From: Candidatus Aminicenantes bacterium
GTDB lineage: Bacteria; Acidobacteriota; Aminicenantia; Aminicenantales; UBA4085
Length of the DNA: 64,000 bases
NCBI GenBank assembly: GCA_030691735.1
Contig: JAUYDS010000118.1
Coordinates: 21,536-85,535, forward strand
Reading direction: 5' to 3'
Part shown: piece after piece, positions 1 to 5,655 of the stretch
Layout: every line of letters begins with the position of its first letter
Numbering within the stretch: position 1 is the first letter of the stretch
Program-made: the position numbers and the translations under genes
The notes under the pieces: generated by a model
Told to the model about the DNA's origin: nothing
Database searches by the model: none
What the model saw: only the letters and a program-made list of their open reading frames with translations

Positions 1-1580
1 CGGAACGCCCAGCAGCCAGGGGACGGGGATCCGGGCCAGGCCGAGGAGGACCTTCGATTCCAGGCTTTTGAACTGCGTGCTCCAGAGAACGGAATTGAAA
101 AAATAGCTGACGGGACGGAGGTCCGAGTTCAATCCCGCCGGCCCCGCCTCGATCTTCGTCCGAAGGGCCTCGACCCGCAGGGGATGGAGACGCGCCGGAA
201 GCCGTTCCGGCGTCACGTAGCGGTTTTTCAGGCCGAACCGTCGCATCGTCCCGATCAGGTCCTCGGCTTCCACCGTCAGCGGCCCGGCGGACGCCAGGAA
301 AACGTTGGAATCGCCGGGCACGACCTTGACCATGGGGAACGCCTGCCGCAGCGTGTTGGCCATGATCGACAGGAATTTTTGGAGCTCCGGACCGATATAG
401 TTTTCGGCCGACGGCACGCGGAACGAGAAGACCCCGCCCTCGGCCAGCTTGTCTCGAACGCGAGCGAAGAATTCCTGCGTATAGAAGCGGTTGATCTGGG
501 CGGTGGCCGGTTCGGGAAGGTTCAGGATTACGGCGTCATAGACAGCCGCAGTCTCTTCCAAAAACGCCCGGCCGTCGTCATAAACAAGATGAACTCGTGG
601 GTTTCGAAGGGATCCCTTCGCGGCGTCGGGCTGGAAGCGCTCGGACAGCCGGATGATCTCGGGATCGAGCTCGACGTAATCCACGTCGGTCCGGGGATAT
701 TTGAGGATCTCGGCCAGGCTTCCGCCGGCGCCGCCCCCGATCAACAAGACCCGCCCGGCCTCGGGCCTCTGGAGCAGGGCGAAATGCACGGATTCTTCGG
801 CGGAAGCGAGGTCGGGGATGGAGTGGACGCGCAGCGAGTTGTTATAGAGGGTGACCTGTTCGGACGTTCGAATGACCTGCAGCTTGCCGTAGAGGCTGTC
901 TTTGGTTTGGATGAGGGCGAAGGGACGCCAGGCGAGCTTTTGGCTGGCAATGTCGGAAAAGAAAAGGGCGGCGTGGGCGGCCAAGGCCAGAGAGAAGACG
1001 AGAGCCGCCTTCCTGCCGTCCAAAAAGAAAAACACGGCTGTCGCCGAGACCGCCCCGACGACGGCCAGCGCCTGCCAATTGGACAACAGAGGGATGAGGG
1101 CGAGATAGGTCAGGAGACCGCCGGCGGCGGCGCCGATCGATTCCCAGAAATAGACCCGCGGCAGATGACCGTCGCTCTTAACCGTGAAAACGAAGATCGC
1201 CCCCAAAGGAAAATTCAAAAAGAAGGAGAGAACGAAAGCGAAGAGAAGGATCGGCCCGAGACCGATCAATTCTCCCGGCAAAATGCCCAGGATGAACCGG
1301 GAAAACCGCAGGCCCGCGAAACAGCCGGGGGCGACGAGGAGGACGCCGAGAAATAAGACCGCCAACCCCTTTCGTCCGGCCTCCCGCCCCGAGGCCCATA
1401 GGCTCCCGCATCCGCCCCACAAGAGCCAGGAGGCCAGGACGAGCCCGAAAACCAGCTCGTTGCCGTAGAACTGGGCGGCGAATTCCCTGAGGAGAAAGAT
1501 CTGGAACGAGGCGGCCAGTAGGCCGAGGAGCACAGCCGGCGGGGAGAACTTCAGGTCCAGATCCCCGGGACCTGATTCTG
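1..1580 (-). CDS. Polyamine aminopropyltransferase (spermidine synthase)-like protein with polytopic membrane N-terminal domain; 5' part of gene at ~1500-1580, gene continues past window start
   Basis: Minus-strand reading frame open from ~1580 to position 1 (absent from the ORF track because it is edge-truncated). Hand translation gives hydrophobic TM segments (IFLLREFAAQFYGNELVFGL) and a spermidine-synthase-like region (VKVVPGDSNVF...). The plus-strand ORF 184..1356 is its antisense shadow. Confidence 0.55.
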
Positions 1581-2672
1581 ACAGTTTGGACACGTCCCTT
1601 GCCTCAGATCGTTCCTGACGATCTTGTAGCCGCTTCTCTCGATGACCATCTTCCGGCATTTCGGACAGAAGGTGTTCTCGCCTTCGTGGCCGGGGATGTT
1701 TCCAGTGTAAACGTAGTGGAGACCCTCTTGGAGGGCGGTCTGCCGGAGCCTTTCGAGGGTCGAGATCGGCGTCGGGGGAAGGTTCTTGATGAGATACATG
1801 GGATGGAACTGGGTGAAGTGGAGCGGAACTTCCGGACCGATCTCCCGATGGAGCCATTGGGACATTCTCCGGATGTCCTCGACGGCGTCGTTCAAGGTCG
1901 GGATGACGAGATAGACGATCTCCATCCAGATCTTGGCCTTGGCGATGATCTTGATGGCCTCGAGGACCGGTTTTAATTCGCCCCGGACGTACGTCTTATA
2001 GAAGTCCTCGTCGAAGGACTTAAGATCGATCTTGATGGCCTCCACGACCTTGGTCAGGGCTTCGAGGGGCTCGGGATTGATGTGCCCGCCCGAGACGACG
2101 ACGCTCCGGACGCCTTGGCGCTTGGCTTCGACGGCGGTGTCGACCATGTATTCATAAAAGACCGTCGGCTCGGAGTATGTGTAGGCGATCGTGGGACAGC
2201 GATATTTGACCGCCGCGTCGGCGACGGCGCGGGGAGGAAAGTCCATGGCCTGGACCTGTTCCGGCCGGGCCTGCGAGATCTCCCAATTCTGGCAGAACTT
2301 GCAGTTGACGTTGCAGCCGGCCGTGGCGATGGACAGGGCGTCCGACCCCGGCAGGACGTGGAAAAAGGGCTTTTTTTCGATGGGATCGACGTTGACCGAG
2401 CAGGCTTTGCCGTAGACGAGCGTGTAATATGTCCCGCCGTCGTTCTGGCGGACGCCGCAGTAGCCTCGCTCCTTATCGCCCAGCTTGCAGCGTCGGGGAC
2501 AGAGGTCGCATTCGATCTCCCGGTCGGCCAGGCGCTTGTAATAGCGCGCCTCGACATGGGACAGGTTGACCGTCTGGCCGAAGGCGTAGAGATGATGAAG
2601 CGCCGGCCCGGGATCCGCGCTCAGAACGGCTCCCGCGCCGGCCGCCGTCCGGAAGAAAATCCGTCTTTTCAT
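1551..2672 (-). CDS. AmmeMemoRadiSam-system-type radical SAM enzyme (PFL-activating-enzyme-like) with twin-arginine-like N-terminal extension
   Basis: CNVNCKFC (Cx3Cx2C) radical SAM motif; conserved YYKRL...CDLCPRRC...DPIEKKPFFH...; C-terminal CPKC...CPNC zinc ribbon; N-terminus MKRRIFFRTAAGAGAVLSA resembles a Tat signal. Confidence 0.8.
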   Translation of the reverse strand: MKRRIFFRTAAGAGAVLSADPGPALHHLYAFGQTVNLSHVEARYYKRLADREIECDLCPRRCKLGDKERGYCGVRQNDGGTYYTLVYGKACSVNVDPIEKKPFFHVLPGSDALSIATAGCNVNCKFCQNWEISQARPEQVQAMDFPPRAVADAAVKYRCPTIAYTYSEPTVFYEYMVDTAVEAKRQGVRSVVVSGGHINPEPLEALTKVVEAIKIDLKSFDEDFYKTYVRGELKPVLEAIKIIAKAKIWMEIVYLVIPTLNDAVEDIRRMSQWLHREIGPEVPLHFTQFHPMYLIKNLPPTPISTLERLRQTALQEGLHYVYTGNIPGHEGENTFCPKCRKMVIERSGYKIVRNDLRQGTCPNCQNQVPGIWT

Positions 2673-2688
2673 GGGCTTGCTCGATCCC

Positions 2689-3594
2689 TCAGGCCGTTTC
2701 CTCGACGATCTGGATCCCCGAAAGCGTCGCCGTTCCCAGCCCCATCCGTTCCGCCGTCCGGAGATAAAGCGGTGCCCGCTTGTCTTCTTCCAAAGAGGGA
2801 AGCCCTTTCGCTTTCCGGAGATCCTCGACGATCCGCCAGCCGACGAAATCCGCCGCCACGGGGTCCAGGCTGAAGATCAACGCTTCATAGGTTTCCGCCC
2901 AGCGGGCGTGGTAGGAAGGGCCTCGATGGTATTGAACGACCAGGGCGTCCAGGATCGTCAGCCGGTGTTTCGATTTGATCGACGGAACGTCGAAGAGCTC
3001 GGCGACGAAGGGATTGCAGTTGTCGTCATGGTATTTGTTGGGATTATGGATGGCGCCATAATAGTTTTTCAAGCCGGCCGTGATCCCGGCCGTCCCATGG
3101 TCTTTCAGCACGGCCAGGCTGACCGACGCGGTGACGAAGCTCGACTGGATGGCCGAGAACAGGCTTCCGATGTTGAGATGAATGATCGGCTCGCCGGGGT
3201 AACCCATACCGGCCGTGTCCGTCCCCATGATCTGAAAGACATCACCGCCGGAATTCAGGCGGTATCGAGCTTCCTTGAGCTCGCGGTTCGTCCGGTCCCA
3301 GACGACGATCTGTTTCTCTCGGATCCCCGCCGCGACCATGAGGCGGGCGAGGGGCAAGCTGACTTCGGGGGGCGTCGAGAGCTCGGGGGCGGCGATCGCG
3401 TTGACCTTGATCCCGACGCGATCGGCAGGCGCGAAGATCGTCCGCAGCCCCGCAACGCCATCGTTCTGGCCGGTGAGAAGACGGAAGCCGCGCTCGTACA
3501 TGTTCGCGAGGACCTTCGGCTCGACCTCGCCTTTTCGCGGAATAACCCCTTTTCCCCGGACGATCACGACCTTCGAGGCGGCCATCGGTGTCAA
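2689..3594 (-). CDS. DUF362 domain protein
   Basis: VVIVRGKG...IKVN...; the size and sequence pattern are typical of the DUF362 family; co-directional and adjacent to the radical SAM gene. Confidence 0.6.
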   Translation of the reverse strand: MTPMAASKVVIVRGKGVIPRKGEVEPKVLANMYERGFRLLTGQNDGVAGLRTIFAPADRVGIKVNAIAAPELSTPPEVSLPLARLMVAAGIREKQIVVWDRTNRELKEARYRLNSGGDVFQIMGTDTAGMGYPGEPIIHLNIGSLFSAIQSSFVTASVSLAVLKDHGTAGITAGLKNYYGAIHNPNKYHDDNCNPFVAELFDVPSIKSKHRLTILDALVVQYHRGPSYHARWAETYEALIFSLDPVAADFVGWRIVEDLRKAKGLPSLEEDKRAPLYLRTAERMGLGTATLSGIQIVEETA

Positions 3595-3677
3595 ATTACC
3601 CCAGCCGGCCGAGACTTGTCAATGCGGTCCGTTGCGGTTATATTAAGAGCCGGGACCTGAATCGATAGGAGTCAAGC

Positions 3678-4589
3678 ATGGAGAGGAAGATGTCGAGAAA
3701 AGAAATCGTCCTGATCCTGGCCCTGGCGGCGGCGCTCACTCCGCCGGCGCCGGGCTCTCAAAAAATCGGGGCGTCGTCCCTGACGTCGCTTCTTCCCCAG
3801 GTCGCCAATTGGAAGGCCGCGGAGGGCGTCCAACGCTATAGTCCGGAAACCCTTTACGAATTCATCGACGGGGCGGCCGAGGCGTATATCAGCTACGATT
3901 TCAAGGAGTTGATCGTCGCCGAGTTCCAGGGCGGCCGGACGAAAACGTCGCTGACGACCGAGATCTACGACATGGGATCGGAGCTGAACGCGTTCGGCAT
4001 CTACAGCGCCGAGCGCTTTTCCGAGAGCCGTTTCATCCCGGTCGGCGTTCAAGGCTACATCGAAGAGGGGACCTTGAATTTCCTGGCCGGCCGCTATTAT
4101 GTCAAGCTGATGGGCTATGAAGGCGGCGGCCAGACCGAGGAATTCCTGAAGCTTTTCGCCGAAGCCATCGTCGACAAGATAAAGAACCCGGGAGGTTTTC
4201 CGGTCCCTCTGCGGGCCTTTCCGAAGGAGGGGCTCGTCGCCAACAGCGAAAAGTTCATCCTGCGCAATGTCATGGGCTTCAAGTTCCTTAAGAACGGCTT
4301 CATCGCCAACTATAAGCAGGCCGGCCAGGAATTCGATGCCTTTCTCATCGACGGGAGGACCGCGGAAGAGGCCGAGGCGATGCTTAAGCAATACCTGGAT
4401 CATTTCGCCAAGAGCGACCCGGCCGCCGACAAGAGGACCACCGGAGCACATGTCAAGGACCCTTATCTTAAGAACGTCTTTGTGGCCAGAGCGGGTTCCT
4501 ATATCTGCGGCGTGACGAAGATCAAGGACGGCCAGGACGCGCTGGGAGAGAAAGTCCTGGCCGCGCTGGTCGACGGCTTGAAAAAATAG
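3678..4589 (+). CDS. Hypothetical secreted protein (N-terminal signal peptide)
   Basis: ORF with RBS (aggag) upstream; hydrophobic N-terminus LILALAAALTPPAPG; no recognised domain. Confidence 0.5.
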   Translation: MERKMSRKEIVLILALAAALTPPAPGSQKIGASSLTSLLPQVANWKAAEGVQRYSPETLYEFIDGAAEAYISYDFKELIVAEFQGGRTKTSLTTEIYDMGSELNAFGIYSAERFSESRFIPVGVQGYIEEGTLNFLAGRYYVKLMGYEGGGQTEEFLKLFAEAIVDKIKNPGGFPVPLRAFPKEGLVANSEKFILRNVMGFKFLKNGFIANYKQAGQEFDAFLIDGRTAEEAEAMLKQYLDHFAKSDPAADKRTTGAHVKDPYLKNVFVARAGSYICGVTKIKDGQDALGEKVLAALVDGLKK

Positions 4590-4632: not shown

Positions 4633-5655
4633 GTGGAAAAGAACAAAGTCCTGACGATCTCGAGCGCGATCATGGCGATCTTCGTCGTGGGCGTCGTCCT
4701 CCGTCTGGCCAAATCGGTTCTCTTTCCGTTCTTCCTGGCCATCTTCTTCTACTTCGTTCTTTCACCCGCCCTGGATTTCCTGACGCGCAAGGCCAGGTTC
4801 CCCAAGAGCCTGGCCTTGGTCGTCATCATTCTGTTCACTTTTCTGGCCTTGTATCTGATGGGGCTGTTGTTCTATTCGAGCGGAGAAACGTTCGCCGCGG
4901 AGGTCCCCAAATACGGCCAGAAATTCAACCGCATGATCGAATCCCTTCAGGTCCAGCTCAAACTTCCCAAATCCAAGGTGGACCCGTTGGCCTGGCTGGG
5001 AGGACTCGATATCACCAAGATCAGATCGTTCTTCCTGTCATCGGTGGGCACGGTCATGACCTTCCTCTCCAACTTGTTCCTCGTCCTGATCTTTCTGATC
5101 TTCATGCTTGCCGGCCGGGGCAAGTTGAACGTCAAGATTAAGAGTTCCTTCGACTCACGGCGCTCCGCTCAGCTGATCAAGATCGTCGAGAACATCGACC
5201 GCCAGGTTCAGAAATACCTGGCCCTCAAGACCGTCAGCTGCATCGTCTCCGGGCTCCTGGCGGGGCTCATCATGGTCGTTTTCGGCCTGAATTTCGCCAT
5301 CCTTTTCGGGTTCCTGACGTTTCTCCTGAACTACATTCCCAACATCGGAGCGCTGATCGCCAAGATCCTGCCGTTCTTGTTCGCCCTGCTTCAGTTCGAC
5401 AGGCCCTGGCAGGCGATCTGGATGCTTGTCGTCCTCTTAGTGGTCGACGCCTTCATCGGTATGGTGGCCGAACCGAAGATGATGGGCACGAGATTGGGGC
5501 TCAGCCCGCTGGCCATTCTCTTCGCTCTCTTTTTCTGGGGCTGGCTGTGGGGCATCCCGGGCATGATCCTGTCCGTGCCGATGATGGTCATCCTGAAGAT
5601 CGTCTGTGCCAATATCCCCGAGCTGAAATTCATGGACGTGCTGCTCAAGCAATAG
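4633..5655 (+). CDS. AI-2E family transporter (PerM/UPF0118)
   Basis: Eight predicted TM segments; C-terminal WGWLWGIPGMILSVPMM motif typical of the family; GTG start. Confidence 0.8.
   Translation: MEKNKVLTISSAIMAIFVVGVVLRLAKSVLFPFFLAIFFYFVLSPALDFLTRKARFPKSLALVVIILFTFLALYLMGLLFYSSGETFAAEVPKYGQKFNRMIESLQVQLKLPKSKVDPLAWLGGLDITKIRSFFLSSVGTVMTFLSNLFLVLIFLIFMLAGRGKLNVKIKSSFDSRRSAQLIKIVENIDRQVQKYLALKTVSCIVSGLLAGLIMVVFGLNFAILFGFLTFLLNYIPNIGALIAKILPFLFALLQFDRPWQAIWMLVVLLVVDAFIGMVAEPKMMGTRLGLSPLAILFALFFWGWLWGIPGMILSVPMMVILKIVCANIPELKFMDVLLKQ

Follow-up and report, generated by a model that had tools for sequence, protein, structure and literature searches.

An AmmeMemoRadiSam-type radical SAM enzyme of Aminicenantes with a twin-arginine-signal-like leader and a candidate envelope-facing partner set

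Does a radical SAM (rSAM) enzyme that begins with an apparent twin-arginine (Tat) signal really carry one, and, if so, on which side of the membrane and with which partners might it act? The question is raised by a minus-strand gene near the start of the window (the whole 64-kb stretch of Aminicenantes DNA that was analysed). In the reading that we favour, with a probability of roughly 60%, the window holds the Aminicenantes version of a widespread AmmeMemoRadiSam variant that is predicted to be Tat exported and envelope facing, with the neighbouring DUF362 protein possibly travelling as a hitchhiker. The argument is computational throughout and draws on the following features.

1..1593, minus strand: 5' part (~530 of ~720 codons) of a gene for a polytopic membrane protein whose central domain is spermidine-synthase-like (AdoMet/dcAdoMet-binding); from frame translation and an HMM match (E=3.5e-201)
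1551..2672, minus strand: gene for a radical SAM enzyme of the AmmeMemoRadiSam type, 373 aa; from PF04055 and TIGR04337 profile matches
2292..2315, minus strand: CX3CX2C radical SAM cluster motif (C120, C124, C127); invariant alignment columns
2574..2672, minus strand: leader, residues 1-33 (MKRRIFFRTAAGAGAVLSADPGPALHHLYAFG), with a twin-arginine n-region, an h-region that is rich in G/A and weakly hydrophobic, and A-F-G as a possible cleavage site; from motif conservation, position outside the confident fold and the lack of another start
2661..2666, minus strand: twin-arginine codons AGA CGG (R3, R4); conserved in orthologs and across phyla
2689..3585, minus strand: gene for a DUF362 protein, 298 aa, no signal peptide, LarA-like fold; from PF04015, homolog starts and AF2/Foldseek
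3678..4589, plus strand (divergent): gene for a DUF6599 protein with an N-terminal signal peptide (MERKMSRKEIVLILALAAALTPPAPG...); PF20244, 157 bits

The rSAM and DUF362 genes had been reported as a pair in an earlier note on this DNA, and both their positions on the minus strand and their family assignments were borne out by the PF04055, TIGR04337, and PF04015 matches. The 1551-2672 product is a member of the radical SAM superfamily by its cysteine motif, its PF04055 match (71 bits against a cutoff of 29.5, residues 116-268), and its TIM-barrel-type fold. The TIGR04337 (AmmeMemoSam_rS) profile matched residues 42-372 over model positions 1-333 of 349, with 389 bits against a cutoff of 220, and the PFL-activase-like core spans residues 41-373 behind a 40-residue leader, in agreement with the core start at about residue 40 that had been proposed. 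C120, C124, and C127 were invariant in both a 61-sequence ortholog alignment and a 30-sequence cross-phylum alignment, and further conserved cysteines lie near the N terminus (C55, C58, C62, and C72) and the C terminus (C336, C339, C361, and C364). The AF2 model had a high-confidence core, mostly with pLDDT >85, and its top Foldseek matches were PFL-AE, RlmN, NifB, and viperin, the best solved structure being PFL-AE (3cb8_A; TM 0.80 normalised to target, rmsd 2.9 Å). PflA (PDB 3cb8, 3c8f) is also the closest solved sequence (E=7e-6) and likewise has its CX3CX2C site early in a partial TIM barrel, whereas the window enzyme is extended by a Cys-rich segment at the N terminus, a CxxC...CxxC module at the C terminus, and the Tat-type leader. 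Identity with PflA itself was rejected (TIGR02493, 59.5 bits against a cutoff of 232), and no glycyl-radical enzyme gene was found near the window rSAM gene.

The leader ahead of this core begins MKRRIFFRTAAGAGAVLSA... (MKRRIFFR...). Tat signals carry the consensus (S/T)-R-R-x-F-L-K near the N terminus, followed by an uncharged, moderately hydrophobic h-region of ~13-20 residues and a small-x-small signal peptidase site, and the K-R-R-I-F-F-R of the window conforms to this motif. Among the 120 closest orthologs, all 118 that could be analysed have RR, and 102 of the 118 have F at the RRxF position, giving the leader consensus [KN]-R-R-x-F-[FLI]-[KR]; R3, R4, and F6 were invariant in the 61-sequence alignment, and these three residues were at least 90% conserved in the cross-phylum alignment. 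The stretch after the motif is variable and uncharged in the orthologs (median 17 residues, mean Kyte-Doolittle hydropathy 0.93, n=118), with at least 13 uncharged residues in 97 of 118. The h-region in the window is short, 11 uncharged residues (TAAGAGAVLSA) and then D20, and the residue that follows RR is Ile, not a polar one. L-Y-A-F-G/S, conserved at residues 28-33 of the ortholog leaders, could give a putative A-x-G cleavage site. The leader was poorly modelled (pLDDT <50 at residues 1-21 and 25-33) and belongs to no confidently folded domain.

From codon 1 to codon 143 of the gene there is no alternative in-frame ATG, GTG, or TTG, which settles the start-codon question raised earlier: the leader must be translated. 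A Shine-Dalgarno-like element, GAGGGA, lies 12 nt upstream of the ATG at 2672, and independent gene callers also gave 373-aa products. Much more remote relatives from many phyla begin with the motif as well, and there the rest of the leader varies in sequence and length. Leaders of the RR/KR-x-F type were present in ~57 of 82 related genomic loci, from >15 phyla, and in 28 of the best 150 50%-identity cluster representatives (enriched close to the query, with 12 of the top 25 and 0 of the last 25). Because no other start is available, RR is universal among the analysable orthologs, and the motif recurs in distant phyla, the leader is neither a chance feature nor a start artefact. On these comparisons the Tat motif is under selection, RR being kept while the rest of the leader varies, and the N-terminal extension behaves, as far as sequence can tell, like a real twin-arginine signal. 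The earlier description of a Tat-signal-like extension was thus upheld, as was its status as an addition to the family, whose classical members are ~335 aa long and leaderless.

The same note had taken DUF362 to stand in for the usual AmmeMemo partners. The absence of those partners was confirmed: the whole window lacks Memo and AMMECR1 genes, and none occurs within ~8 kb (or to the contig end) of the rSAM gene in 10 Aminicenantes-type loci. The substitution was not, for a Memo-AMMECR1 fusion (TIGR04336 plus TIGR04335) adjoins the DUF362-rSAM pair in loci from Acidobacteriota, KSB1, Planctomycetota, and deltaproteobacteria. Memo and AMMECR1 genes lie beside rSAM relatives of this clade in ~35 other loci, and hydrophobic signal peptides were found on 26 of 27 scorable Memo-AMMECR1 fusions, 7 of them with a lipobox. 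The DUF6599 gene adjoins the cluster in 15 loci from Aminicenantes and Acidobacteriota. By their predicted signals, the partners would thus be exported too: DUF362 outside Aminicenantes by RR signals, the Memo-AMMECR1 fusions by their own signals, and DUF6599 by its signal peptide. Compared with the classical AmmeMemoRadiSam system (TIGR04337 rSAM, TIGR04336 Memo-like protein B, and TIGR04335 AMMECR1-like protein A), the likeness lies in the TIGR04337 score and in the TIGR04336/TIGR04335 genes beside clade relatives. Unlike the classical rSAM enzyme, which is presumably cytoplasmic, the window enzyme has a Tat-type leader and no Memo or AMMECR1 gene nearby, and the clade differs in that its Memo and AMMECR1 are fused and bear Sec or lipoprotein signals and in its extra conserved partners (DUF362, the polytopic spermidine-synthase-like protein, DUF6599, and NapH-like or DsbD_2 proteins).

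Fusion proteins bear on the side of the membrane at which the rSAM domain would lie; topology was called from hydropathy and the positive-inside rule. In 10 DsbD_2-rSAM fusions, K/R-rich loops alternate and the C-terminal rSAM domain follows TM6 on the non-positive side. Five clusters of TM-FMN_bind-rSAM fusions, only 48-58% identical to the query P0148, were found; the flavinylation motif VD-x-V-SGAT was present in the three FMN_bind-rSAM sequences checked (P0148, P0157, and P0128), and no TM segment separates FMN_bind from rSAM in P0148 or P0157. P0153 consists of a signal peptide, Memo, AMMECR1, and rSAM, and P0126 and P0137 consist of a signal peptide, a beta-propeller or CBM, and rSAM. 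The fusions to DsbD_2, to FMN_bind, and to a signal peptide with either Memo plus AMMECR1 or a beta-propeller or CBM would place the rSAM domain outside the membrane. In 27 of the 82 loci, genes for a NapH-like Fer4_5 polyferredoxin or DsbD_2 lie no more than 6 kb away, and neither the window operon nor its counterparts in the Aminicenantes loci have a NapH/NosR/DsbD/FMN_bind-type module beside them. The resemblance to NosR/NapH/PceC and DsbD modules extends to PF12801 (Fer4_5), PF04205 (FMN_bind, with SGAT), and a DsbD-like TM domain, each fused to or beside clade rSAM genes. The FMN_bind domains of NosR/NapH/PceC-type modules are flavinylated by ApbE. Modules of the NapH, DsbD, and FMN_bind types are described, in the available part of PMC8238504, as carrying electrons to extracytosolic reductases, and that part does not contain the terms "radical SAM," "Memo," or "AMMECR1."

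The strongest alternative, unlikely but with an appreciable share of our belief, accepts the leader as a real element for membrane targeting or chaperone binding but keeps catalysis at the cytoplasmic side of the membrane. The enzyme would either be tethered at the inner face, next to its polytopic partner, or bear a NarG-like, chaperone-bound remnant; the cytoplasm would provide AdoMet and flavodoxin/ferredoxin, and nothing but the products or partners would lie outside. This alternative accords with the established knowledge that AdoMet and the usual reductants are cytoplasmic, and two NosR-like fusions with an ambiguous TM count (P0133 and P0139) may put the rSAM domain, which could then be cytoplasmic, at the place of NosR's cytoplasmic Fe-S domain. 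Moreover, ~20 of the 82 relatives have very hydrophobic Sec-like or TM N termini without RRxF. Such termini are implausible as exporters of a folded Fe-S protein, so that part of the family, at the least, may simply be anchored in the membrane. Signals are also absent from the Aminicenantes DUF362 proteins and from the AMMECR1 proteins beside Tat-type rSAM enzymes at L043 and L048. Against this, RR is essentially invariant here, whereas remnant signals lose it, and we know of no functional Tat signal that keeps its passenger domain inside; the DsbD_2-rSAM, TM-FMN_bind-rSAM, and signal peptide-Memo-AMMECR1-rSAM architectures all point outward; and cleavable signals of the Sec, lipoprotein, or Tat type are present on the partner proteins.

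Several points count against export itself. AdoMet is synthesised in the cytoplasm, and the analysis identified no exporter for it; moving an Fe-S enzyme by the Sec route is difficult to square with known biology; FMN_bind domains are occasionally cytoplasmic; and several host lineages (Acidobacteriaceae) are aerobes, in whose periplasm an oxygen-labile cluster would pose a problem. The Ile after RR, the short h-region, and the signal-less AMMECR1 proteins noted above also lie on that side. The absence of tat genes from the window is uninformative on export; in favour of it, tatA and tatC adjoin the cluster in one locus. The earlier remark that it would be unusual for a radical SAM enzyme to be exported holds, and it gains strength from the comparative data. 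The literature found describes no radical SAM enzyme outside the cytoplasm, and on that showing a confirmed case would be the first extracytoplasmic system of its kind.

The DUF362 gene was confirmed as the adjacent, co-directional partner, ending 16 nt upstream of the rSAM start codon, and in 30 of 82 related loci a DUF362 gene of the same orientation directly precedes the rSAM gene. Its ATG at 3585 is favoured over the TTG at 3594 of the ORF listing (ORF 2689-3594): only 8 codons lie between the TTG and the upstream stop, and 99 of the best 120 homologs are 297-298 aa long and begin M-x-x-SKVV. PF04015 matched with 61 bits against a cutoff of 24 over profile positions 1-199 of 200. The idea that this protein binds an Fe-S cluster, a property claimed for some DUF362 proteins by way of fused ferredoxin domains, found no support for its subfamily: profile searches found no Fer4 domain in it, no cysteine occurs among the columns conserved at 93% or more in 29 rSAM-linked DUF362 proteins, and the modelled fold is LarA-like (pLDDT 91). 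The top PDB matches in Foldseek were the LarA-family structures 9q3k, 7s91, 4nar, and 9eia (probability 1.0, TM normalised to query 0.42-0.49); at the sequence level, no solved structure was matched, nor was PF09861 in the profile search. DUF362 shares Pfam clan CL0471 with the LarA/DUF2088 nickel-pincer-nucleotide racemases (PMC11770544). LarA enzymes depend on NPN and have an NPN-tethering Lys and a Ni-binding His. The window protein is shorter than LarA (298 versus 400-480 aa), no lar genes were seen, and the motifs K161-D-H-G and H180-N-P-N-K-Y-H-D are invariant. The protein probably binds a cofactor.

The polytopic membrane protein had been missed. Its GTG start at 1593 overlaps the 3' end of the rSAM gene by 43 nt, an overlap identical in loci L001 and L002, and the gene runs off the window start. 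PF01564 (at domain level only) and PRK03612 matched the full-length L002 ortholog, and no other neighbour is kept as widely as a spermidine-synthase-like gene, present in 39 of 82 loci and also beside an FMN_bind-rSAM fusion. Like the membrane polyamine aminopropyltransferases (PRK03612; NF037959, "fused MFS/spermidine synthase"), the protein has an N-terminal multi-TM block and then a SpeE-like Rossmann domain with GGGxG and E-x-D; unlike them, it has a second, C-terminal TM block. A true spermidine synthase or polyamine aminopropyltransferase was rejected, with L002 scoring 98 bits against 250 for TIGR00417 and 129 against 472 for PRK03612, and with N-L-P-[DE]-P in most orthologs at the position of D-x-x-D-P, which we take to be the catalytic motif of E. 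coli SpeE. The soluble domain is flanked by TM helices, and since the far-side loops are strongly positive (K+R 2.5 versus D+E 0.2), it is predicted to face outward, another difference from PRK03612.

These results leave little room for an autonomous two-gene module in which an Fe-S DUF362 protein replaces Memo and AMMECR1, which we regard as improbable. The lack of Memo and AMMECR1 in the window and the Aminicenantes-type loci fits it, as do the DUF362(Tat)-rSAM(Tat) pairs without a nearby Memo gene in several other phyla (L014, L017, L022, L027, and L034). Opposed to it are the conserved, translationally coupled third gene, which makes the unit at least three genes, the 13 loci in which DUF362, rSAM, and Memo-AMMECR1 occur together, and the lack of conserved cysteines and the LarA-like fold of this DUF362 subfamily. 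An ordinary cytoplasmic enzyme with a mis-called start or a chance RR, for which one could cite the long spurious ORF extensions that high-GC DNA yields elsewhere in the window and the slightly non-canonical leader, is effectively refuted by the missing alternative start and by the conservation of the leader as protein in 120 orthologs and across phyla; the Shine-Dalgarno-like element and the independent gene calls also speak against it.

For the favoured reading, a Tat-exported and envelope-facing variant, the ~80 related loci suggest an enzyme system working outside the cytoplasm. The rSAM enzyme would receive its [4Fe-4S] cluster(s) in the cytoplasm, and the Tat translocase would read the K-R-R-x-F-F-R leader and move the folded enzyme to the outer face of the cytoplasmic membrane. 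The Aminicenantes DUF362 protein would most likely bind it before transport and be co-exported as a hitchhiker, because an RR signal of its own is lacking in 10 of 10 Aminicenantes-type loci (and in all of the best 120 homologs) but is retained in 20 of 20 loci of other types. Outside, the pair would work with the coupled polytopic protein, through its outward spermidine-synthase-like nucleotide-binding domain, and with the secreted DUF6599 protein; in other lineages, lipoprotein or secreted Memo-AMMECR1 fusions would be the partners, and NapH-like polyferredoxin, DsbD_2, or flavinylated FMN_bind proteins would supply the reducing electron. The substrate would probably be an envelope or membrane component. 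The most detailed form of the proposal is more tentative, and we put it slightly short of an even bet: a multi-phylum AmmeMemoRadiSam clade would perform extracytoplasmic radical AdoMet chemistry, with the rSAM enzyme exported folded via Tat (DUF362 hitchhiking in Aminicenantes), reduced by NapH-like, DsbD_2, or flavinylated FMN proteins, and given an AdoMet-derived substrate by the outward spermidine-synthase-like domain, while Memo and AMMECR1 act on an envelope lipid or polymer.

Known Tat hitchhiker pairs include the small and large subunits of [NiFe]-hydrogenase and DmsA/DmsB. As in such pairs, the RR signal here is on the cofactor-bearing partner, and the signal-less partner encoded next to it is proposed, in this case from the loss of its own signal in Aminicenantes, to be co-exported once the two have assembled; the general mechanism is summarised in the accessible part of PMC10924467.

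The radical SAM gene of the window was found in a tight minus-strand series (DUF362, radical SAM, and polytopic membrane protein genes), with a DUF6599 gene diverging from it.

Genes of the operon in the window and the divergent DUF6599 gene
2689-3585 (ATG start) or 2689-3594 (TTG start), minus strand: DUF362 gene; PF04015, 61 bits
1551-2672, minus strand: radical SAM gene, 373 aa; begins 16 nt past the DUF362 gene
1-1593, minus strand: polytopic membrane protein gene, partial, continuing beyond the window; GTG start; 43-nt overlap with the radical SAM gene
3678-4589, plus strand: DUF6599 gene, divergent; signal peptide; PF20244

The enzyme matched PF04055 and, over residues 42-372, the AmmeMemoRadiSam radical SAM model TIGR04337 (389 bits against a cutoff of 220 in the HMM search), and the polytopic protein contained a spermidine-synthase-like domain (PF01564, matched on full-length orthologs). 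The order ribF-pyrR-pyrB-dihydroorotase-RNase III-AI-2E-DUF6599, followed by the divergent DUF362-radical SAM-spermidine-synthase-like series, was also present in a 4-Mb Aminicenantes contig and in others. The earlier note had proposed a two-gene module of radical SAM enzyme and DUF362; the overlap of the third gene with the radical SAM gene and the spermidine-synthase-like neighbor in 39 loci contradict this, and both that proposal and readings of the locus as an artefact deserve little weight. A promoter and terminator scan gave no signal exceeding shuffled expectation. Several antisense ORFs of 100 to 390 aa opposite the three genes (for example, window 184-1356, 2082-2873, and 2671-3660, plus strand) were rejected as genes; they are low-complexity shadow ORFs, rich in Arg, Gly, and Pro, of the kind that DNA of 60% GC commonly produces. 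The AI-2E family transporter gene adjoining DUF6599 (window 4633-5655) was rejected as a general partner; linkage was seen in six Aminicenantes-type loci and in no other phylum except at planctomycete locus L085, where such a gene lies by the cluster, perhaps by coincidence.

The leader MKRRIFFRTAAGAGAVLSADPGPALHHLYAFG precedes the conserved radical SAM core. No in-frame ATG, GTG, or TTG was present between codons 1 and 143 of the ORF, so the core cannot be produced without the leader, and a start-codon artefact was ruled out. All 120 best homologs (66 to 87% identity, full coverage) retained the leader; the RR pair was present in each of the 118 that were analysable, as well as in the 2 sequences that the filter dropped, and the phenylalanine of RRxF was present in 102 of the 118, followed by F, L, or I and then by K or R. 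Taken together, these results established that the N-terminal extension is genuine, as the earlier note had claimed. Past the motif, the stretch in the 118 analysable homologs was uncharged and G/A-rich (median, 17 residues; mean hydropathy, 0.93); the window protein, with an h-region of 11 residues and an Ile directly after RR, was at the short end of the range. In the AF2 model, pLDDT was <50 at residues 1-21 and 25-33, and the core was confident, its nearest fold being the PFL-activating enzyme 3cb8 (TM 0.80 over the target; rmsd, 2.9 A).

When 1.84 billion cluster representatives were searched exhaustively and without a profile, 1551 relatives were obtained at E<=1e-30.

N- and C-terminal classes among the best 150 of the 1551 representatives plus the window protein
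Without extension, about 335 aa: 72
RR-type leader: 28
C-terminal fusion: 22
N-terminal fusion to membrane or exported domains: 13
Sec-like or TM N-terminus: 7
Other N-terminal extension: 5
Fragment: 4

The extension was absent from the 72 representatives of about 335 aa. Leader-bearing forms were concentrated in the closest relatives: the top 25 representatives included 12 Tat-type proteins, 7 N-terminal fusions, and 2 Sec-like proteins, and the last 25 of the best 150 included no Tat-type protein. Rank enrichment was used as the measure because an NJ tree of 147 representatives resolved no single "exported" clade; signal-bearing forms fell into at least two clusters, with too few representatives in the window protein's own cluster. 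The leader is not restricted to Aminicenantes; in a cross-phylum alignment (n=30), R3, R4, and F6 were at least 90% conserved, and the remainder of the leader was free in sequence and length. In 22 of the 150 representatives (P0166, P0167, P0190, P0196, and about 18 more), proteins of about 700 to 1150 aa had a long C-terminal extension behind a leaderless radical SAM domain.

A locus scan with a 10-sequence alignment as the query, one genome per species, and ORFs classified with HMMs built for the analysis identified 80 loci in more than 15 phyla. Heuristic classification of the leaders of 82 radical SAM proteins gave 59 Tat-like, 11 Sec/TM-like, and 12 unflagged; by-eye reassignment, which touched about 14 of the 82, gave about 57 RR/KR-x-F leaders, about 20 Sec-like or TM leaders, and about 5 that were absent or truncated. 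In 30 loci, a close DUF362 relative lay directly upstream of the radical SAM gene in the same orientation. About 35 loci had a Memo-AMMECR1 fusion (TIGR04336 plus TIGR04335) no more than 6 kb away, 39 had the spermidine-synthase-like polytopic protein no more than 3 kb away, and 27 had NapH-like polyferredoxin, DsbD_2, or FMN_bind membrane proteins inside the 6-kb range; DUF6599 was nearby in 15. By these counts, DUF362 is a partner of the radical SAM enzyme, as the earlier note had it, but belongs to a larger system alongside the AmmeMemo partners and does not take their place. The 64-kb window contained no Memo or AMMECR1 gene and carries a reduced, locally Memo-less version of that system. 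A hydrophobic signal peptide was found in 26 of 27 scorable Memo-AMMECR1 fusions, with a lipobox in 7 of these. Two Thermodesulfobacteriota loci (L043:575-1141 and L048:162-755) are a misfit to this pattern, with an unfused AMMECR1 of about 190 aa, lacking a signal, directly upstream of a Tat-type radical SAM gene. Acidobacteriota-type clusters (L020:13048-14064 and also L016, L023, L024, L018, and L026) contained a second DUF362 paralog (PF04015, 155 to 176 bits), separate from the radical SAM-adjacent copy, with an RR motif and then a TM-like segment.

The radical SAM-adjacent DUF362 protein had its own RRxFL signal in 20 of 20 non-Aminicenantes-type loci and had no leader in any of 10 Aminicenantes-type loci or of its 120 best homologs, 99 of which were 297 to 298 aa long. 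A PDB sequence search gave no match, and only fold comparison was informative: the confident AF2 model (pLDDT 91, pTM 0.92) had significant PDB matches only to LarA-family nickel-pincer-nucleotide enzymes (probability, 1.0; E values down to 1.6e-5; TM 0.42 to 0.49 normalised to the query), which agrees with the common Pfam clan of DUF362 and LarA (PMC11770544). The residues conserved across phyla were K, D, H, N, and R (K..KDHG..KN.xG..NPNKYH). Because no cysteine was among them, the suggestion that DUF362 binds Fe-S found no support in the radical SAM-linked subfamily, for which the annotation "LarA-like, Tat-exported partner" would replace "iron-sulfur protein." A cofactor-binding fold, as modeled, would fit the Tat route.

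For the spermidine-synthase-like protein and the NosR-like fusions, TM counts from the hydropathy of single sequences were too noisy and gave way to alignment-averaged hydropathy and loop charge; all topology assignments are heuristic. Several independent architectures are predicted to place the radical SAM domain outside. DsbD_2-radical SAM fusions formed at least nine clusters, and in their alignment (n=10), loops 2, 4, and 8 were K/R-rich (3.6 to 4.8 K+R against 0.2 to 1.4 D+E), with the C-terminal linker and radical SAM domain after TM6 predicted on the opposite side. A TM-FMN_bind-radical SAM architecture was found in representative P0148 and its four closest matches (48 to 58% identical to it; some from Planctomycetota); P0148 and P0157 carried the flavinylation motif VD-x-V-SGAT with no hydrophobic segment separating FMN_bind from the radical SAM domain, and one such gene sits between a DsbD_2/Fer4_5 membrane protein and a spermidine-synthase-like protein. 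FMN_bind, NapH-like, and DsbD modules are described as components of extracytosolic electron transfer in the available portion of PMC8238504, which makes no mention of "radical SAM," "Memo," or "AMMECR1." In addition, P0153 combined a signal peptide, Memo, AMMECR1, and radical SAM in a single chain, and P0126 and P0137 combined a signal peptide with a beta-propeller or CBM and radical SAM. In the spermidine-synthase-like protein, the soluble domain between TM7 and TM8 is predicted to face outward because the far-side loops were strongly positive (K+R 2.5 to 2.6 against D+E 0.2). In one Omnitrophota locus, a Tat-type radical SAM gene and a spermidine-synthase-like gene were directly followed by tatA and an incomplete tatC homolog (L072:11434-11929; phmmer E of about 1e-9 against E. 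coli TatA and TatC). The window encoded no homolog of either, an absence that is uninformative for export.

We put the probability of true export of the radical SAM enzyme at 0.6. The enzyme would acquire its clusters in the cytoplasm and then leave folded via Tat, and the signal-less Aminicenantes DUF362, whose gene abuts the radical SAM gene, may be a hitchhiker. Both would act on the outer face of the cytoplasmic membrane, together with DUF6599 and the polytopic protein whose gene is translationally coupled, and electrons would come from membrane conduits of the kind seen in other lineages, not beside the Aminicenantes operon. An enzyme that is membrane tethered yet faces the cytoplasm seems less likely. 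Several observations argue against export: the Sec-like leaders on about 20 relatives are a poor fit to an Fe-S passenger, NosR-like fusions may hold the domain inside, some partners (those in L043 and L048) have no signals, and export leaves the AdoMet source unexplained.

Radical SAM enzymes depend on AdoMet and on a donor of low-potential electrons, and are for that reason generally regarded as cytoplasmic. A conserved clade of exported members, if real, would overturn that assumption; it would also imply that the periplasm offers both AdoMet (or a pre-loaded equivalent) and a source of low-potential electrons. No account of an exported radical SAM enzyme was found in the literature searched, and papers pairing radical SAM with Tat concerned exported substrates or unrelated proteins only; "AmmeMemoRadiSam" received passing mentions only. 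Memo-AMMECR1-radical SAM gene contexts were reportedly described by Burroughs et al. 2019 (JBC 294:10211), who are said to have tied Memo contexts to nucleotide-base and isoprenoid modification. The window enzyme belongs to the AmmeMemoRadiSam family by HMM and, as modeled, resembles PFL-activase-type enzymes in fold. The window-type system differs from AmmeMemoRadiSam in having compartment signals on all soluble components and added membrane partners; it is a variant of AmmeMemoRadiSam and would be more novel than that if export were confirmed experimentally. We know of no biochemical function for Memo and AMMECR1, which are conserved from bacteria to humans and linked to human disease. The membrane partners of the envelope-located version are defined, and it has lipoprotein anchors and electron conduits of its own, which would narrow the places to look for a substrate to the membrane or the cell envelope; its carriers include Acidobacteriaceae and Planctomycetota, and cultivated members, not necessarily carriers, exist in these phyla.

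In an alignment of 32 orthologs of the spermidine-synthase-like protein, most had N-L-P-[DE]-P in place of the D-x-x-D-P motif of aminopropyltransferases, and GGGxG and E-x-D were kept, which suggests a changed reaction or substrate. At L086:2488-8016, an ECF-type sigma factor and a pair of proteins with squalene-hopene-cyclase C-terminal-like domains are encoded upstream of the DsbD_2/Fer4_5, FMN_bind-radical SAM, and spermidine-synthase-like operon, an arrangement that may point to a connection with isoprenoids or the envelope.
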